A stretch of 64,000 bases of DNA from contig CAWBXD010000010.1 of assembly GCA_963792705.1 (NCBI GenBank), positions 2,224-66,223 of the forward strand, in the 5' to 3' direction. Each line of letters begins with the position of its first letter. The stretch's first letter is position 1. The notes below the pieces were generated by a model that was not told the DNA's origin, searched no databases, and saw only the letters and a list, made by a program, of their open reading frames with translations. Below, piece by piece: positions 16,259 to 33,156 of the stretch. This DNA is from an uncultured Chloroflexia bacterium. Lineage in GTDB: Bacteria > Chloroflexota > Ktedonobacteria > Ktedonobacterales > Ktedonobacteraceae. A program made the position numbers and the translations under genes.

Positions 16259-18637
16259 TTACCGGCCGAATCGACGTAAGCGCAGTGAGTTGCTCACGAC
16301 AGTGACCGAAGAGAGAGCCATCGCCGTTGCCGCAAAAATCGGAGCATTCTCTCGTAGGATAGGAATTAAGGGAGAGAGAATAGCTATAGGTATCAAGACC
16401 ACGTTGTAGGCAAAGGCCCAGAAGAGATTTTGCTTGATAGTTCGTAACGTTGCACGGGAGAGAGCTAGTGCTGTCGCAATGCTCTTTAGGTTCCCTTTTA
16501 CCAATGTGATATCGGACGCTTCGATTGCCACATCGGTACCCGTTCCCATAGCAATGCCTGCATTAGCCTGCACCAGAGCGGGTGCATCGTTGATGCCATC
16601 ACCAGCAAATGCTACAATTATGCCTTGATCCTGTAAATGCTTGACCTGATTCGTCTTGTCTTCTGGTAGCACCTCTGCCAGCACATGCTCAGGTGCAATG
16701 CCAACACTGGCGGCAATAGCTTGTGCGGTACGTCGATTGTCACCTGTAACCATCCACACAACAATTCCTTGTGCGTGTAACTGCTGAATCGCTTCTACCG
16801 AACCAACTTTGACGGTATCAGCGACCGCGACCGCTCCTACAAGCTCGCCATCAAGAGCAATAAGCATCGCTGTCTTGCCTTGCTCCTCCAACGTTTTCAA
16901 TTGCTCCTCTAAAGGTGAGGAGTCGATAGAATGCTCTTGAAGCAAGGTTCGCGTCCCAATCAGGATAGCACGACCTTCTATCGTCGCTTGCAAACCACGT
17001 CCGGCGAGGGCGGCGAAGCGTTCGGGATATGCATTGACTCGTAGGCCGCGTACTTTCGCCCCTTCAACAATAGCAGTTGCGAGTGGATGCTCAGACCCCT
17101 GCTCTGCCTCTGCTGTCAAGCGTAACATTTCGTCAACTTGCGTGGAAGCAATAGCAATTACGTCCGTCAGTTCGGGCTTACCCTTCGTGATAGTACCAGT
17201 TTTATCGAGGAGAACTGCTCGCACAGCTTGAATACGTTCAAGGCTCTCACCACCCTTGATCAGAATACCTTGCTCTGCCCCTTTGCCTGTTCCAACCATG
17301 ATGGCTGTTGGCGTAGCAAGTCCAAGGGCACATGGGCAAGCAACAACTAGAACGGCAACGGCTGCCACGATTGAGCTAATCCAGGGGTTACTCGTACCCA
17401 TCATACCTGCTGAATGTATGCCAATAGCAAAGATGTTTGTAAGCATGGCCCATACAATGAAAGTCAGCGAGGCGATTACCAACACCGTTGGCACAAAGAT
17501 GCTAGAGATAGTGTCCGCGAGACGCTGAATGGGAGCCTTCGACCCTTGTGCTTGCTCAACCATTCGCACGATACTTGCCAGCACCGTATCAGCCCCTACT
17601 TTCGTTGCCTTCATATGTAGCAAACCATGTTGGTTCACGGTTGCGCCTATGAGCATGTCGCCAGCACTTTTTTCGACGGGAATGCTTTCACCAGTAATCA
17701 TCGACTCGTCAATAGAGGAGTGGCCCGAACGGACCTCGCCATCGACGGGGATTTTTTCACCTGGGCGCACGATCAGCTCATCGCCGACCTGTACCTGTTC
17801 TATCGGTAATTCGATTTCGTGTCCTGCACGAAGTACATGCGCGGTTCGAGCTTGTAGGCCCATCAATTTTTTGATCGCGTCATTTGCCTGCCCCTTAGCA
17901 CGTGCTTCCAAATACTTGCCCAGGAAGATTAGCGTCACAATGAGGGTTGTCGTATCGTAAAAAGTGGTACCACCAACAACTTTGGGAAAGAAGGTAGCGA
18001 CAACACTCAAGATATATGCTGCTGTTGAACCAAGCGAAACCAAGGTGTCCATATTCGCGCTACCATGAAGCAAGGTCTTGATCGCTCCTTTATGGAACTC
18101 CCAACCTACGACAGCCCAAACAGGCGTTGTCAAGACGAGCAGGAGAATATTTTCACCTGGAAATGCGTTCATAAAAAACATACTCAAGAGCACAACAGGG
18201 AGCGAAAGTGCTATAGCGAGAATGAGAAGATTACGCTTGCGAACCAATTCCGCGGCTTTCCGTGAGTTCCGCTCGTCCTCTTGTTGAGTACTGATGGAGG
18301 TGAAATTGCTGACGCTGCTCTCCGTCGTTGTTGTAGTGATGGGTTGTGGTGCAGGTTGCTCTATGAGTGTTGCTTTGTACCCAACTGCCTCGACCTTCTG
18401 TAGCATCTGGTCCACACCTGTCTGTTCAGGATTGTACATGACGGTGCCACGCTCGGTCGCCAAGTTGACTTGAGCATCCAGGATGCCGGGGACCTTTTTA
18501 AGTCCCTTTTCGATACGCATGGCACAGGAGGCACATGTCATCCCTTCAAGGGCAAGCGTTGCTTGACTTGCAGCACTGGCCTGATCGTGTGCGCCCTCTT
18601 GCACGGTCTCGTTTGTGCTGTTTGTTTCTATCGTCAT
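16259..18637 (-). CDS. copA: copper-translocating P1B-type ATPase
   Basis: N-terminal HMA motif [14 protein letters not shown]6 CPC ([12 protein letters not shown]), phosphorylation site DKTGTIT, and hinge [10 protein letters not shown]. Confidence 0.95.
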
Positions 18638-20775: not shown

Positions 20776-22071
20776 TCACCTATATACAGTACAGCCGCTC
20801 TGCTCAAGTTGTTGAAACCACTCAGGAAAGGCAGCAACTTTGTTCCACCGCACATCAACCTTTTCAAGATTGGGTAGGTCTTTCAAGCTTTCGGGAAGAG
20901 AAATGAGTTTGTTGCCCCTTAAATCAAGGTGCGTAAGATGTGTTAAGTTGCCGAACGACTCTGGTAAAGTTGTTAACCTGTTATTTCTTAGGTCGAGTCG
21001 TGTAAGTTGCGTCATGTTTCCAAATGACTCTGGTAACACAACCAATTGGTTATTCATTAGATATAATTCTTGAAGATGAGTTAGGTTCCCTATTGACTTG
21101 GGGAGTGAGACTAGTTGGTTATTCATACCATGCAATTCCTGCAAATTTTTCAGATTGCCAAGCGAATCTGGCAACGTGGTCAATACGTTATTGTATATCC
21201 TTAGTTCTTTTAGATGTGTAAGGTCGCCAATATGTTCAGGAAGTGCAGTCAAGGCATTGTCAGTGCTATTGAGGTAGCGAAGGTTGCTCAAATGTGTTAG
21301 CAATTCGGGAAGAGAAGTCAAAGAATTGTTGCTGAGATACAGAAAAAATGTAAGATTTTTTAGCATTCCAAGAGACGCTGGCAACACCTTGAATGCATTA
21401 TGACCTATATCAAGCGTATAGAGTTGGGAGAGGTTGCCAATCCGCTCCGACAAAAATGACAACTGATTTTCACTAATGTTGAGGCATTCAAGACTCTTTA
21501 TTTCCCATAATGTTTCGGGTAGTGAGGTGAGTTGATTTTTGCCTACGCTTACATTTGTGAGATGCGTTAATTGACTCATACGTGTGGGAAGCGAAGCAAG
21601 TTTGTTGCCGTAAACATGCAAATTTTTGAGGTTTGTAAGTCGCTGAATGCTTTCAGGAAGTGATATTAGTTGGTTCTTATCGACATGTAGTTCCTCAAGC
21701 TGATGCAAGTTCCCAAGTGTTTCGGGAAGTGAGGCGAGTTGATTTTCGTCCAACAGAAGCTTTTTAAGCTGATGCAAATTCTCAAGTGACTCAGGAAGCG
21801 ATTGCAGGTTGTTCCCAGTCACATCTAAAAAGCGCAGATTAGACAAGTTTCCAAGTGACGCAGGAAGAGACGTTATCGCACAATAGCGCAATGACAGTGC
21901 AACAACGCTATTGTTTTCGATAGAGGCGCCTATTGCACACTCACCTCGCTCAATTATTTCCTTTGTCACAAAGGGAAGAGCTTCCTCGTCATACAAAGAC
22001 TTGTTCGCTTGAAGAATTTCCTCTATTGCTTTGAGTGCGTTTCTTTCAGGAATGGAGATATTGTTTTGCAT
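20776..22071 (-). CDS. leucine-rich repeat (LRR) protein, about 15 tandem 23-aa repeats
   Basis: Repeated LxxLPESLGNLxxLxxLxLxxNQLxS units run through most of the protein. ATG at 22071 (MQNNISIPE); the track start at 22086 is TTG. Confidence 0.85.
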   Translation of the reverse strand: MQNNISIPERNALKAIEEILQANKSLYDEEALPFVTKEIIERGECAIGASIENNSVVALSLRYCAITSLPASLGNLSNLRFLDVTGNNLQSLPESLENLHQLKKLLLDENQLASLPETLGNLHQLEELHVDKNQLISLPESIQRLTNLKNLHVYGNKLASLPTRMSQLTHLTNVSVGKNQLTSLPETLWEIKSLECLNISENQLSFLSERIGNLSQLYTLDIGHNAFKVLPASLGMLKNLTFFLYLSNNSLTSLPELLTHLSNLRYLNSTDNALTALPEHIGDLTHLKELRIYNNVLTTLPDSLGNLKNLQELHGMNNQLVSLPKSIGNLTHLQELYLMNNQLVVLPESFGNMTQLTRLDLRNNRLTTLPESFGNLTHLTHLDLRGNKLISLPESLKDLPNLEKVDVRWNKVAAFPEWFQQLEQSGCTVYR

Positions 22072-22106
22072 ATCATAACGTTTCAACTTAGCTTACAAAA
22101 GATTTT

Positions 22107-22817
22107 TTACATTACAAAGGTGTCGGTGAATGTCTCCCCTGCTTTGTATACTACCGTTTTTCCGTTGCGATAGACCGTTACTGCCCCTTGGCCATAAACT
22201 CCCCATGTTCTTTTTCGTTCTCCATCGCCATCATCGATCATACCTGTTCGTTCATCAATGCCTAGAAGCACTGCGTCAGGAAGCAATTTTGCTAACCGCT
22301 GTACCCAACCTTTGCCAAAGGTGTTGTGATGAGGGAGAACACAGGCGTTTGGTACCAAACCCAGTCCTTCAGTAACCTTACCAACACTGGGATCAAAATA
22401 ATACTGGCATAAGACCATCGCGCCAGCACTGCTACCAGCGATTACTGCTCCATTCTCATAAGCGTTTAGCATGGCTTGCCACGCTGTACTTTTCATAAGC
22501 GTTTGACCAAGATAACCAGTGAAGCCCCCTAATAGATAGATAAGACGAGATTGACGTAGAGAAGTTGCGATACTAGCATCATTTGCTGACACTTTATCAG
22601 TGAGAGGCAATGCCTTAACGTTGCTTGCGCCAAGGCTTGTGAACCAATTGACGCCATTTCTGCCCGCACGCTGATGATTATTATCTGGCGCCGCGGCTGT
22701 CGGGATAATACTAATATTTGCCTGTGGACCACCTGCTAAAGCAATAGCGCGTTGGTCGGGTTGCGCCATTTGTCCACCAAACTCAGCTCCGCCCTCTAAT
22801 ACGATATATCCAGCCAT
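22107..22817 (-). CDS. peptidase S51 family (cyanophycinase/peptidase E-like)
   Basis: Nucleophile-elbow motif VIAGSSAGAMVL, N-terminal IVLEGGAEFGG, and a length and pattern typical of S51. Confidence 0.7.
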   Translation of the reverse strand: MAGYIVLEGGAEFGGQMAQPDQRAIALAGGPQANISIIPTAAAPDNNHQRAGRNGVNWFTSLGASNVKALPLTDKVSANDASIATSLRQSRLIYLLGGFTGYLGQTLMKSTAWQAMLNAYENGAVIAGSSAGAMVLCQYYFDPSVGKVTEGLGLVPNACVLPHHNTFGKGWVQRLAKLLPDAVLLGIDERTGMIDDGDGERKRTWGVYGQGAVTVYRNGKTVVYKAGETFTDTFVM

Positions 22818-24109: not shown

Positions 24110-24259
24110 CTTGAAAGAAACGTTCTTGTGTATTCCAAAAATCATTTCTTGTATGTAAGAATGTACACAGATTTCCCTCGTAGCGCAAAACGATACAGCA
24201 GGTTTTTCCATAATTGTAATAGCTTTCAATCGTGCTGCCTAGTGTTTTCAGGAGGTTCC

Positions 24260-25438
24260 ATGAGTAGCAGAGCTAGTAGCTTTGGTATTTCAGCCATTTC
24301 TCACGTCTTCAATGATAGTTCAAGTGAGTTACGGAATAAGATCATCGGTATCTACGCGTTCCTTATTGCGTTTAACGTTCTTGCCTGGGTCTTTGCATTC
24401 GCAGGTTTTAGCGTCCGATATCCTGAACTTCTCGGTACAGCGCTCTTAGCGTACACTTTCGGGTTACGTCACTCTGTCGATGCAGATCATATCTCAGCCA
24501 TCGACAACGTCACGCGTAAATTGATGCAAGAAAACAAAAAGCCTATTGGTGTCGGGTTCTTTTTCTCGCTCGGTCATTCCACGGTTGTGGTTGCATTATC
24601 TGTCGCCATTGCTATCGCGGCGACGTTCATTCAAGGAAGCCTTCCGGCTCTTAAAAACGCTGGTGGACTCATTGGAACATCCGTATCAGCACTCTTCTTG
24701 TTTGTCATCGCGCTCATCAATGGCCTTGTTCTCTGGGAGATTTTCCAGACCTTTCAGAAGGTAAGACGCGGAGAGGAATACAGCGAGCAGACACTTGATG
24801 AGTTTTTAAACCAGCGTGGCATCATGGGTCGTTTTTTCCGCCCTTTGTTGCGTATGGTGGATGCGAGTTGGAAGATGTATCCTGTGGGCGTTCTGTTTGG
24901 ACTTGGTTTTGATACTGCGACTGAGGTAGGATTGTTAGGGATTGCAGCTACAGCCGCTGGCAAGGGAATGCCTGTCCTCTTCATCCTTATCTTTCCAATG
25001 CTCTTTACGGCTGGTATGTGCTTGCTTGACACAACGGATGGTATCCTAATGCTTGGTGCATATGGGTGGGCTTTTGTGAAACCTGTACGCAAACTGTACT
25101 ACAACTTAAATATCACGCTTGTGTCGGTGTTAGTAGCTGTGGTAGTTGGTACGATTGAGGTTCTGAGCATCATTGCAATGGAGTTTCACCTGAGTGGTGG
25201 TTTATGGGACCCATTGGTCAATCTCGACTTTGGTGTTTTGGGTGGCATCATTATTGGTCTCTTCCTTCTTAGTTGGGTTATATCGACCATCATCTATAAG
25301 GTGAAGCGATATGATGATCTTGAAGTGAAGACAGCACAACCGCTTTCCACGCCCTCAAAAGTAATAAGCGAGACAAAGAGCAGTTCTGTTGCATCAGCTT
25401 CATTAAAGGATACAACAAGAAGCAGCATTCGCTCTTAG
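24260..25438 (+). CDS. NiCoT-family (HoxN/HupN/NixA) nickel/cobalt permease
   Basis: Signature LRHSVDADHISAIDNVTRK in TM2, FFFSLGHSTVV, and GLGFDTATEV. GGAGG lies 5 nt before ATG 24260. The 44-codon N-terminal extension from GTG 24128 looks non-coding. Confidence 0.88.
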   Translation: MSSRASSFGISAISHVFNDSSSELRNKIIGIYAFLIAFNVLAWVFAFAGFSVRYPELLGTALLAYTFGLRHSVDADHISAIDNVTRKLMQENKKPIGVGFFFSLGHSTVVVALSVAIAIAATFIQGSLPALKNAGGLIGTSVSALFLFVIALINGLVLWEIFQTFQKVRRGEEYSEQTLDEFLNQRGIMGRFFRPLLRMVDASWKMYPVGVLFGLGFDTATEVGLLGIAATAAGKGMPVLFILIFPMLFTAGMCLLDTTDGILMLGAYGWAFVKPVRKLYYNLNITLVSVLVAVVVGTIEVLSIIAMEFHLSGGLWDPLVNLDFGVLGGIIIGLFLLSWVISTIIYKVKRYDDLEVKTAQPLSTPSKVISETKSSSVASASLKDTTRSSIRS

Positions 25439-25579: not shown

Positions 25580-26056
25580 ATGCATCAATATGTCGATTTG
25601 AGTAACGATTTACTTCATAAACGTGGTTATCGCTTGACGCCGCAGCGTTACCTTGTCTTAAGTGTGATACAAGAAGCGAACGGGCATATTAGCCTTGAGC
25701 AGATTGCGGATCGCGTCCAGGCACTTAACCCTCGCGTTAGCCTCTCAACCATTTACCGCACGTTAGAACTCCTCAACGAGCTAGGCCTAATACACGAAAA
25801 TCATCTGCCCGGCGAACCTCTCCATTATGAAATGCCACAAGGGAACAACCACCATCACCTTGTATGTAAGAAGTGTAAAACCATGATACATCTTGATGAC
25901 GCACTTTTGGGAGATCTGCACGAACGGATGCAGAAACAATACCATTTCCACAACCTCTCGCTTGGCTTATTGGCAGCAGGATACTGTGATACATGCTGGC
26001 AACATATGCAGCAAGAGGCCGAGCATCTTCTCCAGGAAACTGACGCACAGCAATAG
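25580..26056 (+). CDS. Fur-family metalloregulator (Fur/Zur/Nur type not resolvable)
   Basis: Winged-helix region LTPQRYLVLSVIQEANGHISLEQIADRV...STIYRTLELLNELGLI, the metal-site region HHHLVCKKCKTMIH, and a second Cys pair YCDTCW. Confidence 0.85.
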   Translation: MHQYVDLSNDLLHKRGYRLTPQRYLVLSVIQEANGHISLEQIADRVQALNPRVSLSTIYRTLELLNELGLIHENHLPGEPLHYEMPQGNNHHHLVCKKCKTMIHLDDALLGDLHERMQKQYHFHNLSLGLLAAGYCDTCWQHMQQEAEHLLQETDAQQ

Positions 26057-26278: not shown

Positions 26279-28678
26279 ATGAGGATTTATAATACCTTGA
26301 CACGGCAGATAGAAGAGATTGTGCCTATGGAGGATGGGAAGATCAAGATGTATTCTTGTGGCCCCACCGTCTATCGCTATATCCACATTGGCAACTTGCG
26401 AACCTTTGTCATGGCAGACTGGGTGCGAAGAGCCTTTGAGTATCGAGGGGTTGAAGTCCTGCATGTAAAAAATATTACCGACGTGGGACATATGCGACGC
26501 GAAGTCGTAGACCAAGGCGAAGATAAGGTTGAGGCACAGGCACGTAAAGAGGGAAAGTCATCTCTTGAGATTGCACAATTCTATACCGACGCCTTCCATG
26601 AAGATGAAACGTTACTGAACATCCTGCCAGCACACGTTTTTCCACGCGCAACACAGCACGTCCCCGAAATGATTAAGATTATTCAAGGGTTAGTGGCAAA
26701 AGAAATTGCCTATGAGGTCAACGGGAATGTGTACTTCGATATCAAACGCTTTCCTGACTATGGCAAGCTTTCTGGCAACCTGCTCGAACATATGATGGCG
26801 GGAGTACACGAGGGCGTTGATGCAGACCGACACAACCCTGAAGATTTTCCCTTGTGGAAGGTTGCCGAACCTGGACGCGAAATGGCGTGGGAAAGTCCGT
26901 GGGGACGCGGCTTTCCTGGCTGGCACATCGAGTGTACAGCAATGTCGATGAAGTATCTTGGTACACATTTTGACCTGCACACGGGCGGCGTTGACAACAT
27001 TTTCCCACATCACGAAGATGAAATCGCACAAAGTGAAGGCTTTTCGGGTGAGCAGTTTGTCAACTACTGGCTCCATGCACAGCATCTGCTCGCCGATGGG
27101 CAAAAGATGGCAAAGTCTACCGGCAATGCATATACACGGGCAGAGGTGGCGTCGCGTGGCTTTGAACCAATGGCCTTGCGCTATTTTTATACAACAGCAC
27201 TCTACCGTAGTCGTCTCAACTTTACCTTTCGAGCCTTGCAAGCAGCCCAAACTTCTTTAGAACGACTCAGAGACTTAGCATACCGTCTACTGTTGCAAGG
27301 AGACGAAAAAGCCATCTTTTCTGATGAACCGATGCTGGAGGATGAGGGAAGGCAGTGGAGAGCGACCTTTCTTGCCGAAGTTGAGAACGATTTGAATATG
27401 CCTCGTGCGATGGCGGTTGTCTGGGCGATGCTACGTTCAGCAGAAAACGCAACGACGAAACTGCGTGTACTCTTCGACATGGATTGTATTCTTGGCTTTG
27501 GGCTTAAAGCATACCTTGCAAGTGATCAACCTCAACATAGAATTGAACCTGCCGCCTATCTAGCAGCCGTACCATCGCCAGTGGCCGCTCAAGTACAGAC
27601 ACGCGCAACCTTAAGAACACAACAAAGTTACCAGCAAGCTGATACTCTACGTCAGCAATTGAGTCAAGAGGGCTATCTGGTACGGGATACAGAGCGAGGT
27701 ACACTCGTTGCACCACGTCGCCTGGATGAAGAGTTTTCGGTTCTCGCCCGTTCTACCGATGCTCCCGATATGACACAAAAGTCGGACCTCTTCGAATTTT
27801 CGGTGAACCTATTAGCGCATAACAGCAAAGATGATGTAGCACGCTGTATAGAGAGTGTGCGACGTTCGGTTGGAAAGCACACGATAGAGATCGTTGTGAT
27901 CGACAATGGGTCAACAGACGAAACGCTGCCCTATCTACAACAGCTTGCGCGTCAAGGAGATTTGACGGGGGAAGATGGGCAACGCATTGGTCTACACGTG
28001 CTCTTCGCAGACCACAACATGGGTTTTGCAGCGGGTCGTAATGCAACGATGCGTGTGAGTTGTGGACATTTTATTGTGCTGATGGATACCTCTATCGAGG
28101 TCAAAGGGGATATCTGGACACCATTAGCAACCACGCTAGCAGACCCGTTAGTAGGTGTGGTGGGACCTTATGGTTTGGTGACAGAAGACCTGCGTGACTT
28201 TCATGAGTCTGTAGGACCACAGGTTGACGCGGTTGAAGGCTATCTCATGGCCTTCCGTCGTACACTTCTATCAGAGGTAGGGTGGATTGATGAGAAATTT
28301 CGTTTTTACCGTTTGATGGACATTTTCTATAGTTTCTTTTTCAAGGCAGCAGGCTATCGTGCTATGACGGTTTCACCCGTGGTAGAGCTGATCGAGAAGC
28401 ATCCACACCGTGAATGGTATAGTCTCAGTGAGGACGAACAGCGTACAAAAAGCAAGAAAAACTATGATATCTTCCGTGATCGCTGGCATCACGGCGAAAG
28501 CCTTCTTGTGAAAAACTATAATCCAGAGCATTTGTGGCCCAGTCACAATCACCCCTTGCATCTTCAAGGGACCCATACGCATACACCGGATGAACTTCCA
28601 GCTCCTGGTACGATGCATAGTCATTCGCATCAGCATTGGCCCGATCATTCGCATGAACATCTTCATGTACATGAATAG
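26279..28678 (+). CDS. cysS: cysteine--tRNA ligase fused to a GT2 glycosyltransferase domain and a His-rich tail
   Basis: CysRS: MYSCGPTVYRYIHIGNLRT (HIGH), WHIEC, FPHHEDEIAQSE, KMAKSTGN (KMSKS), and the C-terminal ADTLRQQLSQEGYLVRDTERGT. GT2: FSVNLLAHNSKDD, VVIDNGSTDET, VLMDTS, GYLMAFRRTLLSEVGWIDEKF. Tail: THTHTPDELPAPGTMHSHSHQHWPDHSHEHLHVHE. Confidence 0.85.
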   Translation: MRIYNTLTRQIEEIVPMEDGKIKMYSCGPTVYRYIHIGNLRTFVMADWVRRAFEYRGVEVLHVKNITDVGHMRREVVDQGEDKVEAQARKEGKSSLEIAQFYTDAFHEDETLLNILPAHVFPRATQHVPEMIKIIQGLVAKEIAYEVNGNVYFDIKRFPDYGKLSGNLLEHMMAGVHEGVDADRHNPEDFPLWKVAEPGREMAWESPWGRGFPGWHIECTAMSMKYLGTHFDLHTGGVDNIFPHHEDEIAQSEGFSGEQFVNYWLHAQHLLADGQKMAKSTGNAYTRAEVASRGFEPMALRYFYTTALYRSRLNFTFRALQAAQTSLERLRDLAYRLLLQGDEKAIFSDEPMLEDEGRQWRATFLAEVENDLNMPRAMAVVWAMLRSAENATTKLRVLFDMDCILGFGLKAYLASDQPQHRIEPAAYLAAVPSPVAAQVQTRATLRTQQSYQQADTLRQQLSQEGYLVRDTERGTLVAPRRLDEEFSVLARSTDAPDMTQKSDLFEFSVNLLAHNSKDDVARCIESVRRSVGKHTIEIVVIDNGSTDETLPYLQQLARQGDLTGEDGQRIGLHVLFADHNMGFAAGRNATMRVSCGHFIVLMDTSIEVKGDIWTPLATTLADPLVGVVGPYGLVTEDLRDFHESVGPQVDAVEGYLMAFRRTLLSEVGWIDEKFRFYRLMDIFYSFFFKAAGYRAMTVSPVVELIEKHPHREWYSLSEDEQRTKSKKNYDIFRDRWHHGESLLVKNYNPEHLWPSHNHPLHLQGTHTHTPDELPAPGTMHSHSHQHWPDHSHEHLHVHE

Positions 28679-28709: not shown

Positions 28710-30314
28710 ATGTTCGTACTAGAAGATGTCTCGATAGTGACCGCTCAGGAGTCATTTGATCATTTAACGCCAAACCAAGTTGTGTTCTTAGATGGGAGTA
28801 TGGGACCACTCACTCCTGCACAAGAGGCTGCGCTTTGCAGCTTTGTTGAAAATGGTGGTGGATTAGTCTGTAGCGGAAACGCAGTAGAGATGTACCATGA
28901 GTATGATGCTCTAGGTGCAGTTCTTGGGCATGTCCGTGGCATGTGTACTCCGCAAAGCGAAATCATCGTGCGGGTCGCCACCCCTGACTCCTATCTCACA
29001 CGTCGTGTTGATACTTCTTTCGCGGTGTTTGAGGCGGTCTATTTGCTGGCAAGAGTTCCTTCTGATGCTCAAATTCTATGGAGCACTACATGGCACTACG
29101 TACCATATGCCGTTGCGTATACCCGTTCCTATGGTCGCGGAAGAGTCTTCTGTACAACGTTAGGCAGTACATCAGAGACACAAACGCATCCTGTGTTTCA
29201 ACAAATGTTAGGACGTGCCATGCGTTATGCGGCAGGAGTGAACACAATAGAAATACCTGCACGGGTGGCGATGATTGGCTATGGCGCGATTGGTTTTGAG
29301 CACGGAACAGCAATTAGTAATGTATCAGGGTTAGAATACGCACTGGTATGTGACCGCAATGAAGAACGTCTGAGTGCGGCACAAACCGCTTTTCCAGGAG
29401 TACGTACCTGTACCGACTTGCAAGAAGTGGCTGAAGACCCAACAATCAATGTAGTGATCGTCTCAACACCACCCAATACGCATGCCGCTATTACCATGCA
29501 GATGTTACACGCAGGAAAACACGTTGTCAGCGAAAAACCGTTTTGTTTGACAACCGCTGAAGCCGATGAGATGATCGAGCTTGCTACGACCTTGCAACGC
29601 GCCTTAACCGTCTATCAATGCAGACGTTGGGACCCAGATTATCTTGCCATTCAGCAGGTCATCAAAAGCGGAAGTATTGGTCCCATATTTCACATGGAAA
29701 CCTTTATTGGTGGCTATACACATCCATGTGATTACTGGCATTCGCACGAACCAATCTCCGGTGGTGTCTTTTATGATTGGGGATCACACTACCTGGATTG
29801 GATATTGCAACTCATTCCCGACCGTGTGGTAAGTGTGCGCGGCGTAAAACATAAACGTGTATGGCATGATGTCACCAATGCGGACCAGTCAACTGTCTAT
29901 CTGCGTTTCGCCAACGGGCAGGAAGCCGAGTTTATGCATTCAGACATCGCGGCGGCGATGAAGCCAAAGTGGTATATTCTAGGGGAGCAGGGTGCTATTG
30001 TGGGGGATTGGCGACAGGAGACGATAAAGACACGCCGTTGGTCGGGCGACCTTATTGAAGAACAACTTGCCCCTTCTGAAGCATTACCCAATCTCGTCGT
30101 CTCTACCCGCGATAGAAGCGGTGCCATTCATGAACAGCATCTCACACTCCCCTCTGCACCATTGTATGCCTTTCATCGGAATCTCGCCAACCATCTCCAT
30201 TCGGGAGAGGCTTTAGCGGTACCACCCGAAGAGTCAAGACGTAACATCATGGTGATGGAGGCAGCGAAACGTTCCGCAGAACAGGACAGCGAAAGCATTG
30301 CTCTCGATTGCTAA
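28710..30314 (+). CDS. fusion of a ThuA-like domain with a Gfo/Idh/MocA NAD(P)-dependent oxidoreductase
   Basis: N-terminus VVFLDGSMGPLTPAQEAALCSFVENGGGLVCSGNAV is ThuA-like. From about residue 205, RVAMIGYGAIGFEHG...VVIVSTPPNTHAAITMQMLHAGKHVVSEKP is the Gfo/Idh/MocA Rossmann region. SD AAGAGGAG lies before ATG 28710. Confidence 0.75.
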   Translation: MFVLEDVSIVTAQESFDHLTPNQVVFLDGSMGPLTPAQEAALCSFVENGGGLVCSGNAVEMYHEYDALGAVLGHVRGMCTPQSEIIVRVATPDSYLTRRVDTSFAVFEAVYLLARVPSDAQILWSTTWHYVPYAVAYTRSYGRGRVFCTTLGSTSETQTHPVFQQMLGRAMRYAAGVNTIEIPARVAMIGYGAIGFEHGTAISNVSGLEYALVCDRNEERLSAAQTAFPGVRTCTDLQEVAEDPTINVVIVSTPPNTHAAITMQMLHAGKHVVSEKPFCLTTAEADEMIELATTLQRALTVYQCRRWDPDYLAIQQVIKSGSIGPIFHMETFIGGYTHPCDYWHSHEPISGGVFYDWGSHYLDWILQLIPDRVVSVRGVKHKRVWHDVTNADQSTVYLRFANGQEAEFMHSDIAAAMKPKWYILGEQGAIVGDWRQETIKTRRWSGDLIEEQLAPSEALPNLVVSTRDRSGAIHEQHLTLPSAPLYAFHRNLANHLHSGEALAVPPEESRRNIMVMEAAKRSAEQDSESIALDC

Positions 30315-30372: not shown

Positions 30373-31146
30373 ATGATGTCTAGTAGTCAACGCCGTAGCC
30401 CTGGCACAGTTGCACTTGTAGGCTCCGGTGAATACCTTGATGTGATGAACGAGGTTGATACCTATCTCTTAAATACTGTGGGAGGTGCAGGGACAGCGAA
30501 AGTTGCCCTTCTTCCAACAGCAAGCGGTCTGGAGCCAAATGGACCAACATCCTGGAACAATCTAGGCTTACAACATTTCAAGAAGCTAGGTGTACAAGAT
30601 ATACGTGCAACACGTATCATTAATCGCGCCAGCGCGTTTGACCAAGCACAACTGGACCTCTTACAAGGTGCCGACTTCTATTATTTTTCTGGTGGCAATC
30701 CGCAGCACACCATAGATACATTGCGAGACTCGCCAGCATGGAACATCATTAAAACAGCGTATGAGAATGGGGCGGTTCTTGCTGGCTGTAGTGCTGGTGC
30801 GATGATGCTTAGCGCGCGAACTATCTCTGTGCGACAGGTTATGATGGGAGAGCCAGTAAGCTTTGTCGAGGCAATGGGCGTTGTGCCAAACGTGATTGTA
30901 TTTCCCCACTTTGACCGCATGGCTGGCTTCTTAGATCAAAACCGCTTCTCACACCTGCTAAGTTCTATTCCTGACCAGAATCGTGTTATTGGCGTTGACG
31001 AAGATACTGCGCTAGTACGTATCGAGCCAAGCGAAACACCTGACAAGCCAGCTCGATGGCGTGTCATGGGGCGGCAGACCGTCAGCATATTTGACGGAGA
31101 CAAAAAACCACGCATACTTCGTAGTGGAGATGAGATAGCATTGTAA
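30373..31146 (+). CDS. peptidase S51 family (cyanophycinase/peptidase E-like), second paralog
   Basis: VALVGSGEY at the N-terminus and nucleophile motif VLAGCSAGAMML. Same architecture as 22107..22817. Confidence 0.7.
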   Translation: MMSSSQRRSPGTVALVGSGEYLDVMNEVDTYLLNTVGGAGTAKVALLPTASGLEPNGPTSWNNLGLQHFKKLGVQDIRATRIINRASAFDQAQLDLLQGADFYYFSGGNPQHTIDTLRDSPAWNIIKTAYENGAVLAGCSAGAMMLSARTISVRQVMMGEPVSFVEAMGVVPNVIVFPHFDRMAGFLDQNRFSHLLSSIPDQNRVIGVDEDTALVRIEPSETPDKPARWRVMGRQTVSIFDGDKKPRILRSGDEIAL

Positions 31147-31189: not shown

Positions 31190-31195
31190 ATGAGC

Positions 31196-31603
31196 ATGCA
31201 CTCAGATACACATAAAAAACAGAAAGATGTACCCTCTGCTCTGACGCCAATCGATCCTGATGGTGTCGCAGAACTTCAGGCATCAGCTCCATCAGACGAA
31301 CTGATTGCGGTTGTAACGGGCACATTTCAAGCACTCGGCGACCCAACACGGCTGAAAATATTGTACGCGTTAGTGAAGCGTTCCTGCTGTGTGCGTGATT
31401 TAGCAATCCTAGTAGGTGTTTCGGAGTCGGCTGTATCGCATCAACTCAGATTTTTAAAGGATCGGCGGCTGGTAAAACAACGACGCGAGGGAACAACTAT
31501 TTACTATTCTTTGGATGATAGCCACTTAGAGGTACTCTTTAGGGAGGCAGAAAATCACGCGGACCATGTGTATTATGGTCTTCCCGATCATCCTAACGCC
31601 TAA
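31196..31603 (+). CDS. ArsR/SmtB-family metal-sensing repressor (probably translated from a leaderless mRNA)
   Basis: LGDPTRLKILYALVKRSCCVRDLAILVGVSESAVSHQLRFLKDRRLV is the canonical ArsR wHTH with a Cys pair. The ORF could also begin at ATG 31190. Confidence 0.88.
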   Translation: MHSDTHKKQKDVPSALTPIDPDGVAELQASAPSDELIAVVTGTFQALGDPTRLKILYALVKRSCCVRDLAILVGVSESAVSHQLRFLKDRRLVKQRREGTTIYYSLDDSHLEVLFREAENHADHVYYGLPDHPNA

Positions 31604-31733
31604 AGAAAGGCGAACGCGACTCGCTTAATGAGTCGCATATTTATTCGATATCTATCTGAGCGGGTGAGCATATACACAGCTACATAGATTGTACATAATG
31701 AATTGTTACGAACAGAAAGGCAAAGGAAACACG

Positions 31734-32537
31734 ATGCATACACCATCACTCTTATTACTCTTGGGAGCTGCGGCGGCTGTTGCAATATTACATTCCATTC
31801 TTCCCGATCACTGGGTGCCTCTTGCAGTGGTTGCACGCACACAACGCTGGGGTTTACTGCGTGTTACGCGTGTAAGTGCGCTAGCATCAGTTGGGCATGT
31901 TATCACCTCTTTGGTGCTGGGAGGAATTGTCGCCCTTATTGGACTACAATTTCAGCGTCAACTCGATACACAACAAGGACATATCATTGGTGGCATCCTC
32001 ATCCTTACAGGTTTTGGTTTTCTGGTTTGGGGACTCATTGGTGGAGGACATGGGCATAGTCATACAGGGGAAGGACATACCCATGCTCATGGTGTAGAGC
32101 ACGAATATGGACATGTTGATGAACATGAGCACGGGGAACACAGTCATGACGCAGAGCATGAGCATCATCATACAGAAGAGCACGAGCATGCTCATGAGGA
32201 ACACGCACACGAGTCTGCACAAGCTAGCAAGAAGCCTATCAAACAGCAAACGCTTGCTGGCAAACTTGCAACAATTGCGGTTCCCTTTGGTATTGCAGCT
32301 TCGCCTGATTTAACGATTTTGCCTGTGGCATTGGGAGCAAGTGCTCTTGGAGGAGGCGCGGTTGTTGGCGTATTGGGAGTTTTCGCTGCTTTGACTATCG
32401 GTACCTTTATTGGTCTCACTGTACTTGCCACGCTTATTGGGTATCAAGTCAAAGGGGCATGGTTAGAAAACAATGCAAATACCATCACATCTCTTGTTCT
32501 CGTTGCGATTGGTGTTGTGGCATTTGTTGGCTTTTAG
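31734..32537 (+). CDS. His-rich-loop metal transporter, RcnA/NicO-like (putative Ni/Co efflux)
   Basis: TM1 motif LHSILPDHWVP, six hydrophobic segments, and a central loop GGGHGHSHTGEGHTHAHGVEHEYGHVDEHEHGEHSHDAEHEHHHTEEHEHAHEEHAHE. It lies immediately downstream of the ArsR gene. Confidence 0.55.
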   Translation: MHTPSLLLLLGAAAAVAILHSILPDHWVPLAVVARTQRWGLLRVTRVSALASVGHVITSLVLGGIVALIGLQFQRQLDTQQGHIIGGILILTGFGFLVWGLIGGGHGHSHTGEGHTHAHGVEHEYGHVDEHEHGEHSHDAEHEHHHTEEHEHAHEEHAHESAQASKKPIKQQTLAGKLATIAVPFGIAASPDLTILPVALGASALGGGAVVGVLGVFAALTIGTFIGLTVLATLIGYQVKGAWLENNANTITSLVLVAIGVVAFVGF

Positions 32538-32667: not shown

Positions 32668-33156
32668 ATGGCACAACATCGAGGATATCTTTTAGGACGA
32701 CTCTTCGCCCTTCTCGCAGCACAGGAGGCATTAGAAAGCTCTCCTGAACACCTGTATCAAGTGGTATCGACCACTCCCCCACAAGTAATGCCCAAAGCTC
32801 TTGCGAGGATGATTGAGGCAGGCAAGGAAGAAATGCTTTTTCCTCTTATGCAGCAACTTCCGCTTGATGCTTTTGACAGCGCACTCAACAGGCGCGAACA
32901 GGGTGCATTCGCGCTAGGGTATATGCATGAACGCTCTGGCTATTCCGCGCCTCTTATAGAGGAAGAGCGAGATAACGATGAACCGGATTTGACGGAACGC
33001 TACGAATTTCGTCTTGACCCTCAGTTAAAAGAATGGCTTAAAACAAGGGGCGGTGGTGGGTTCATTCGTACACTTCTACGCGCAGAACGTACAGCTATGG
33101 TGCAAGATACAACATTCAAGCAACTCTCAGGGGGAGACGAAGAATATGCATCATAA
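32668..33156 (+). CDS. solitary Cas11 / Cas8c-C-terminal-like helical protein with a possible RHH-like C-terminal extension
   Basis: [17 protein letters not shown] ... [12 protein letters not shown] ... [27 protein letters not shown] mirrors the conserved pattern of Cas8c/Csd1 C-termini (LGRLFAvLE..Q ... aSaTP..vFp ... FP..LsleeQG.F.LGYYHQR). The tail [29 protein letters not shown] follows. Confidence 0.45.

Follow-up and report, generated by a model that had tools for sequence, protein, structure and literature searches.

Aminoacyl-tRNA synthetases with appended domains are known. The locus described here raises the question of why a cysteinyl-tRNA synthetase (CysRS) would carry a glycosyltransferase (GT) at its C-terminal end, and of what such an enzyme might glycosylate. 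The gene lies in a 64,000-nucleotide stretch of DNA from an uncultured bacterium of the Ktedonobacteraceae (Chloroflexota; assembly GCA_963792705.1, contig CAWBXD010000010.1, positions 2,224 to 66,223), which was analysed as a whole and which we call the window. A preliminary description of the gene, made from the sequence alone, had reported a complete CysRS fused in frame to a GT2-type glycosyltransferase and a His-rich tail, and had offered two readings: a channel for a Cys-sugar conjugate, or a CysRS with an appended domain. We find that the complete class-I CysRS, the GT-A domain and the His tail form one genuine gene. Our main explanation, to which we give a probability of roughly 45%, is that the product is a working CysRS carrying a GT that would be targeted to tRNA-Cys through the anticodon-binding domain (ABD) of the synthetase. 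The key point is that this GT is co-inherited with the reader of the tRNA-Cys anticodon in two phyla and in thousands of proteins.

A single gene spread across Ktedonobacteria and Chloroflexia

The list of open reading frames (ORFs) of the window contains one frame of 799 codons, running from ATG to TAG at 26279-28678 on the plus strand, as had been reported (Table 1). The earlier domain calls (complete CysRS, GT2, His-rich tail) were all correct by Pfam and NCBIfam, the quoted CysRS and GT2 motifs were all located in the protein by position, and the end of the CysRS part, placed at about residue 480, agrees with an ABD that ends near aa 477. In Pfam, tRNA-synt_1e (PF01406) matched aa 14-324 with 321.5 bits (E 7.6e-96), and Glycos_transf_2 (PF00535) matched aa 511-643 with 57.9 bits against a cutoff of 23.3, so that the GT2 call for the C-terminal half, which had been put forward as refutable by a profile search, stands. 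The third profile suggested in the preliminary description, DALR_2 (PF09190), was silent on this protein at E<=0.01, and CysS_C (PF23493) gave a weak match at aa 432-472 instead. A protein identical to that of the window is present in a public collection (P0386), on a 102-kb contig of a Ktedonobacteraceae metagenome-assembled genome (MAG).

The preliminary description had also raised the concern that the frame might result from a stop codon lost between two genes. A scan of one genome per species with the C-terminal half detected a relative in 414 genomes; the counts out of 80 loci given below refer to the best 80 of these 414, which are Ktedonobacteria and Chloroflexia. Among the best 80 are the cultured Ktedonobacteria Thermogemmatispora carboxidivorans, T. 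aurantia, T. tikiterensis, Dictyobacter aurantiacus and D. kobayashii, and, for the Chloroflexia, members of the Roseiflexaceae, Kouleothrix, Oscillochloris, the Chloroheliaceae and Ca. Ribeiella. The fusion architecture is thus spread across both classes, which answers the call for a phyletic survey made in the preliminary description. The CysRS domain directly abuts the GT domain in 80 of 80 loci, finished isolates included (tblastn), and 77 of them hold an intact fusion ORF of 746-840 aa (median 801 aa). Moreover, the best 120 database matches to the CysRS half were all fusions, nearly all of ~800 aa and with 73-99% identity, originating from Ktedonobacteraceae, Ktedonosporobacter and Chloroflexota MAGs, and the databases contain more than 110 full-length fusion homologues of ~800 aa. 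Six shorter entries among these 120 (505-749 aa, P0165 and others) were checked as candidates for a plain CysRS; this was rejected, all six being truncated fusions.

Selection acts on every segment of the protein. The ratio of nonsynonymous to synonymous substitution rates (dN/dS), estimated from the closest relatives, in which synonymous sites are saturated, came to 0.03-0.04 in the CysRS body; the GT core gave 0.05-0.10 and the tail 0.09-0.22. Over the 77 loci, the CysRS body had a median identity of 77% and the GT core one of 73%, compared with 63% in the tail and 49% in the ABD. By these measures, purifying selection on the GT domain is strong, and a dN/dS of 0.05-0.10 together with a median identity of 73% versus 77% indicates that it is as constrained as the essential catalytic part of the CysRS.

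These comparative data, with 80 contiguous loci, the database proteins and 77 intact ORFs in which every segment is under strong purifying selection, exclude a lost stop codon, and led us to reject a chimera of two adjacent genes joined by sequencing error, which we regard as extremely improbable. One distant relative could be cited in its favour: on a 10.9x long-read contig (L002, 6778-8975), a cysS ORF of 414 aa (56% identity) and an ABD+GT ORF of 324 aa (43%) lie in different frames and overlap by 22 nt. However, this arrangement is explained more simply by a frameshift error inside a fusion, and L002 probably corresponds to a fusion of ~730 aa that is devoid of the long His tail.

The CysRS half is likely to be functional

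The N-terminal half exceeds the cutoff of the cysS equivalog model TIGR00435 of NCBIfam (431.2 bits versus 340), aa 1-477 being aligned to positions 1-463 of the 466 of the profile. The signature motifs are found at SCGPT 26-30, HIGN 36-39, WHIEC 215-219, HHEDE 244-248 and KMAKS 276-280, and the zinc-ligand contexts are represented by C27, C219 and H245/E248. The solved CysRS structures 8qhp (330 bits), 3sp1, 6ujd and 1li5 align with this half over its full length. Within the ABD, R446, Y451, D455 and R458 align to R427, W432, D436 and R439 of the E. coli enzyme (1li5, 185-aa query). In E. coli CysRS, Arg427, Trp432, Asp436 and Arg439 contact the GCA anticodon (PDB 1U0B; PMC13449415).

Because the cysS equivalog cutoff is passed, the structure alignment runs from end to end, the motifs are kept and dN/dS is only 0.03-0.04, the protein is likely to be a working CysRS, and probably the housekeeping one; no second CysRS was found within the window. 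The reading of a working CysRS with an appended domain, in which tRNA charging would still be possible, fits the TIGR00435 score, the structure alignments and the anticodon-contact positions.

The GT domain is associated with the anticodon-binding domain

The question is then which part of the synthetase the GT depends on. Distant matches to the C-terminal half are proteins of ~300 aa that consist of a CysS_C domain followed by the same GT subfamily and that contain no catalytic CysRS part. A search with one of these stand-alone proteins retrieved more than 2,000 clusters at 90% identity in Actinomycetota. In an exhaustive profile search, 547 clusters at 50% identity with E<1e-30 comprised the ~800-aa fusions, fusions of ~710-745 aa without the long tail, and many stand-alone proteins. 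The stand-alone genes are truly separate, since the gene upstream encodes a cNMP-binding protein, a hydrolase or a tRNA(CAT), and never cysS; a convergent ftsH follows them. We refer to this combination of CysS_C and a GT2-like domain, an unnamed family defined in this analysis, as the ABD+GT module. The window protein, like the other fusions and the stand-alone proteins, has its three elements: CysS_C, the pattern R-x4-[WYF]-x3-D-x2-R, and the core D-x-S ... DAxEGY ... YRxxD.

Of 124 stand-alone proteins, 123 have the pattern of anticodon contacts R-x4-[W/Y/F]-x3-D-x2-R, as do 114 of 114 fusions, with F or Y at its second contact position. A set of 103 fused and stand-alone sequences showed no variation at D455 and R458, and conservation of at least 90% at R446. 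In proteins without a synthetase part, conservation within the ABD is highest at these four contact positions. In addition, the profile search did not find the GT domain without the ABD among close relatives. Because stand-alone ABD+GT proteins without a catalytic CysRS part are abundant in Actinomycetota, the distribution of the two domains indicates that the constant partner of the GT is the ABD, not the Cys-activating domain, and that the two are tied evolutionarily.

A tRNA(CAT) gene, which could be an elongator Met, an initiator or an Ile2 tRNA, was noted just upstream of stand-alone ABD+GT genes at L086 7879-7953 (47 nt upstream), L003 879-953 and L090 3719-3793.

The architecture is already present in databases, annotated as an ordinary CysRS. 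NCBI names the fusions 'cysteine--tRNA ligase' without referring to the GT, and the stand-alone proteins are named there as Actinomycetota glycosyltransferases. JGI often mislabels stand-alone or fragmentary ABD+GT proteins as 'cysteinyl-tRNA synthetase' (P0002, P0005, P0409, P0413 and others), which have no catalytic domain. We therefore flag an annotation problem in both directions, fusions being listed as plain CysRS and stand-alone proteins as cysteinyl-tRNA synthetases. Full-text literature searches returned no description of a CysRS-GT2 fusion, of synthetase fusions in Ktedonobacteria, or of ABD-linked or bacterial tRNA glycosyltransferases.

The GT domain has the pattern of a live enzyme

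The GT motifs are located at FSVNLLAHN 507-515, VVIDNGSTDET 539-549 (DNGSTD 542-547), which is a canonical nucleotide-binding strand, and MDTSIE 602-607, and are completed by AAGRN 584-588, DAVEGY 650-655, R660-R661, Y677-R678-x-x-D681 and H708-P-H710-R-E-W713. AlphaFold2 (AF2) models of aa 425-799 (pLDDT 89, pTM 0.83) and of the full-length protein (pLDDT 84, pTM 0.84) both give the linker between ABD and GT a pLDDT of ~90. ABD and GT are predicted as one rigid unit, and the pTM values suggest a defined arrangement of the domains. In Foldseek searches of PDB, the domain matched GT-A enzymes only (probability 1.00, E ~1e-10 to 1e-11, 13-25% identity). The nearest structures were a Leptospira GT (6p61), ppGalNAc-T1/T2, WrtF and the chondroitin polymerase K4CP, in agreement with a profile search of PDB. 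These searches gave generic GT-A matches and no close structural relative of known function.

The canonical metal-binding DxD motif of GT-A enzymes is not present: in a profile alignment, its slot is occupied by D603-T-S605, facing D-A-D of 6p61. However, D603 and S605 are invariant over the 103 fused and stand-alone sequences. Across the same set, 19 columns are invariant, 15 of which fall in the GT domain, and the invariant or near-invariant GT residues include E607, D650-A-x-E653-G-Y655, R660-R661, Y677-R678-x-x-D681 and H708-x-H710-R-x-W713. By its conservation, the domain looks like an active enzyme whose metal site is non-standard, and not like a domain in decay. From the purifying selection and the invariant polar residues at catalytic positions, we infer glycosyl transfer from a nucleotide sugar.

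The gene neighbourhood and the metal question

In the window, the fusion gene is followed after 31 nt by a gene for a ThuA-like domain fused to a Gfo/Idh/MocA oxidoreductase (Table 1). This gap contains a good ribosome-binding site, AAAGAGGAG, and no terminator-like site, and the two genes are probably co-transcribed. The ThuA-Gfo/Idh/MocA gene is found next to the fusion gene at 44 of 80 loci; in Ktedonobacteraceae it lies downstream, in some Chloroflexia upstream. A cyanophycinase-like Peptidase_S51 gene adjoins the fusion in 16 of 80 loci, Chloroflexia included; in one chloroflexial locus (L074), the order is ThuA-Gfo, fusion and S51, with 15 nt before the fusion. Moreover, the same S51 subfamily (37% identity) occurs 3.4-4 kb from a stand-alone ABD+GT gene in three Actinomycetota loci of two lineages. 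There, it follows a gene for a deacetylase of the PIG-L (MshB/BshB/Mca) family. The pair lies at 12294-13741 in L088 and L089, where the two genes overlap by 4 nt, and at 12308-13757 in L090; it is absent from two other Actinomycetota loci, L086 and L091. Because the ThuA-Gfo/Idh/MocA and S51 neighbours are retained with shuffled gene order across two classes, a functional link with the fusion is suggested.

Table 1. Features of the fusion gene and of its surroundings in the window
Feature	Position	Strand	Remarks
Whole gene, CysRS-GT2-His-tail fusion	26279..28678	+	799 aa; stop TAG 28676-28678
CysRS catalytic Rossmann fold, connective peptide (CP) insertion, stem-contact fold and helical bundle	26279..27550	+	aa 1-424; PF01406, TIGR00435
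Anticodon-binding domain (ABD)	27551..27709	+	aa 425-477; weak PF23493 match, 1li5 alignment
Linker, APRRLDEEFSVLARSTDAPD..., partly conserved	27710..27793	+	aa 478-505, 28 aa; family alignments
GT-A-fold GT2-type glycosyltransferase domain	27794..28513	+	aa 506-745; PF00535, AF2, Foldseek
His-rich tail, ending ...HSHQHWPDHSHEHLHVHE	28514..28675	+	aa 746-799; composition and conserved pattern
ThuA-like domain fused to Gfo/Idh/MocA oxidoreductase	28710..30314	+	Pfam ThuA and GFO_IDH_MocA
Cyanophycinase-like Peptidase_S51	30373..31146	+	Pfam; NCBIfam score below cyanophycinase cutoff
Second S51 copy	22107-22817	-	Pfam; NCBIfam score below cyanophycinase cutoff
NiCoT nickel/cobalt transporter	24128-25438	+	Pfam, NCBIfam
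Fur-family regulator	25580-26056	+	Pfam, NCBIfam
HMA P-type ATPase	16259-18637	-	Metal-homeostasis cluster around the fusion
ArsR regulator; His-rich RcnA/ZIP-like membrane protein	31190-31603, 31689-32537	+	Metal-homeostasis cluster

The tail of the fusion contains 15 His in its last 54 aa and 14 in the last 44 aa (32%), as had been pointed out for the latter. The motif HW[PL]DHxHxHxHxH is present in 110 of 114 fusions, and the last ~17 aa (780-796) were modelled by AF2 as a beta-hairpin with moderate confidence. The tail plausibly binds a divalent metal. Neither the shorter fusions nor the stand-alone proteins have it, so that it is an add-on to the module.

Such a tail brings up another explanation, namely that the C-terminal half is mainly a metal-handling or regulatory appendage, in which the GT-like domain, having lost canonical DxD chemistry, and the tail would together take up Zn, Ni or Co and serve the zinc-dependent CysRS as a metal buffer or sensor. 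The D-x-S in the DxD slot, the invariant HxHRxW, the conserved tail and the window neighbours (NiCoT, Fur-family, ArsR, a His-rich RcnA-like exporter and an HMA P-type ATPase) are all in line with it. However, the NiCoT, Fur, ArsR and His-rich membrane genes accompany the fusion only in its closest relatives (L006-L010, L063), that is in six or seven of the 80 loci, and NiCoT and Fur are already absent in L001, which indicates that this context is lineage-specific and lies outside the conserved unit. Moreover, the ~730-aa fusions and the stand-alone proteins keep the GT core without the tail, the conserved residues coincide with the canonical catalytic positions of GT-A enzymes, and the fusions retain the nucleotide-binding DNGSTD. 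We consider this explanation improbable. A more specific version, in which the fusion is an alternative CysRS regulated by Zur or Nur and tied to the NiCoT, Fur, ArsR and RcnA-like genes, was rejected on the same count of loci (6-7 of 80) and on the absence of an inverted repeat in the 222-nt upstream region.

Two further features of the window were noted. A 162-aa ORF at 32668-33156 (+) has a match to Cas8c/Csd1 (PF09709) that is confined to the C-terminal end of the profile (positions 451-556 of 559), and appears to be an isolated cas gene fragment. A 436-aa leucine-rich-repeat protein, which is unusual for bacteria in general, is encoded at 20776-22086 (-).

A proposed delivery of the glycosyltransferase to tRNA-Cys

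In the mechanism that we favour, the fusion protein would charge tRNA-Cys, and its ABD would at the same time act as a targeting device that delivers the C-terminal GT-A enzyme to this tRNA. A sugar would then be moved from a nucleotide-sugar to tRNA-Cys. The anticodon arm, or its vicinity, is the most plausible site because the ABD and the attachment of the GT sit there; alternatively, another acceptor might be glycosylated in a tRNA-Cys-dependent manner. In the fusion, glycosylation would take place on the same tRNA that is being charged, and in Actinomycetota the ABD+GT protein would work as a separate protein. The narrower proposal, that the GT-A domain is a glycosyltransferase specific for tRNA-Cys with the ABD as its targeting module, fused in Chloroflexota and free-standing in Actinomycetota, is tentative, and we hold it to be possible but rather doubtful. 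Here we infer that the module binds tRNA and transfers a glycosyl group, and to which acceptor.

The co-inheritance of ABD and GT therefore predicts a tRNA-Cys-directed or tRNA-Cys-dependent glycosylation in bacteria. If the narrower proposal of a tRNA-Cys-specific enzyme is true, bacterial tRNA-Cys, or something attached to it, would carry an as yet undescribed sugar modification, and the ThuA-Gfo/Idh/MocA oxidoreductase and the S51 hydrolase might act as its partner enzymes or in its removal.

Several observations weigh against a tRNA-Cys-targeted enzyme. To our knowledge, no glycosylated nucleoside has been described in bacterial tRNA-Cys. The stand-alone proteins are acidic, with a median pI of 4.9 and a net charge of about -15, which is untypical of RNA-modifying enzymes, and their D-N-G-S nucleotide-binding signature is degenerate (for example VVVDATETD). 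Together with the non-canonical DxD, this degeneracy makes the donor, and even glycosyl transfer itself, uncertain. In addition, no tRNA-Cys gene was found near the fusion or stand-alone genes in 91 loci, and no T-box or other known leader was found by Rfam upstream of the fusion gene. Structural constraints could also explain why the ABD residues are conserved. Finally, the recurrent ThuA-Gfo/Idh/MocA and S51 neighbours point to a sugar or peptide chemistry that lies outside the model.

Some of these observations would be accommodated by a fusion of convenience, in which the acceptor of the GT2 enzyme has nothing to do with tRNA and could be a small molecule, a protein or a precursor of the cell envelope. 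The ABD would then be only a structural cap or dimerisation scaffold, and the fusion would ensure co-expression. The GT resembles generic GT2 enzymes, its best PDB matches being sugar- or protein-directed GT-A proteins of low identity; the acidity of the stand-alone proteins fits as well, and the ThuA-Gfo/Idh/MocA gene, the order of which varies by class, and S51 would suggest a small-molecule glycoside pathway. However, this leaves unexplained why, in proteins without a synthetase part, conservation of the ABD peaks precisely at the four positions of anticodon contact, and why the GT never occurs without the ABD among close relatives. We judge it unlikely, although not negligible. Should the acceptor prove to be unrelated to tRNA, the finding would shrink to an unusual yet ordinary domain fusion.

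The Cys-sugar channel is disfavoured

MshC, a paralogue of CysRS, ligates Cys to GlcN-Ins in mycothiol synthesis. On this precedent, the preliminary description had proposed that Cys-AMP formed by the synthetase could be passed to a sugar, so that the protein would be an MshC-like, non-translational Cys ligase coupled to a GT and channelling a Cys-sugar conjugate, such as a thiol of low molecular weight. That CysRS paralogues perform such chemistry is general knowledge, and the PIG-L gene in an operon with S51, 3.4 kb from a stand-alone ABD+GT gene in three Actinomycetota loci of two lineages, could be taken as a further hint. However, the MshC model TIGR03447 of NCBIfam failed on the window protein (205.4 bits against a cutoff of 485.1), while the cysS model passes, and MshC structures in PDB aligned over aa 1-332 only (162 bits). 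A PIG-L deacetylase was found neither in the window nor at any of the 80 Chloroflexota loci, and two other Actinomycetota loci are devoid of it; no GT4 enzyme of the MshA type was found among the window ORFs. Moreover, the ABD, which is not part of MshC, is retained with its anticodon contacts, and the partner of the GT in the stand-alone proteins is this ABD, without any Cys-activating domain. The Cys-sugar idea is disfavoured because it depends on the catalytic domain and leaves the ABD without a role, which is the reverse of what the data show. On the MshC score, the coupling to the ABD and the lack of PIG-L, we rejected the MshC-like ligase and thiol channel as the leading model, and its probability appears very small.

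Comparison with known systems

Residues 1-477 of the window protein match canonical CysRS (E. coli CysS, 1LI5/1U0B; PRK14536) over the full length, the contact positions of the ABD included. Two features are shared with the Borrelia-type CysRS 3SP1: HIGN in place of HIGH, and 11 residues inserted after the first helix. Unlike solved or described CysRS, the window protein carries ~320 additional C-terminal residues, made up of the linker, the GT-A domain and the His tail. MshC (3C8Z/8HFM) shares the CysRS catalytic fold with aa 1-332 of the window protein and lacks an ABD, whereas the window protein keeps a conserved one.

With GT2/GT-A enzymes (PF00535), the C-terminal domain shares the GT-A fold, the DNGSTD strand and the GRN, FRR and DE-F motifs. 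It differs from known GT-A enzymes by the invariant D-x-S in the DxD slot, by the addition of an invariant HxHRxW, and by a CysRS ABD that always precedes it. The usual GT2 motif is YxEDxDL; its 'ED' is replaced in the window domain, which reads YRxxD. His-rich metal-binding tails are known in HypB, UreE and SlyD, and the tail of the fusion, with its high His density and conserved pattern, is a candidate for this group. The eukaryotic enzymes QTGAL and QTMAN are similar to the hypothesis proposed here in that a GT modifies a specific tRNA at the anticodon loop. However, they act on queuosine in tRNA-Tyr and tRNA-Asp, are unfused and have no synthetase ABD.

Finally, gain and loss of synthetase domains is a recognised evolutionary theme, which the window gene has in common with two described cases. 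The MetRS of M. penetrans carries ancillary N-terminal domains (PMC13215547), and a CysRS without ABD, CysRS*, has been described, making the ABD of CysRS a separable module (PMC5389517). Unlike in these two cases, the ABD by itself has here been put to a new use, as the N-terminal domain of enzymes from another family.

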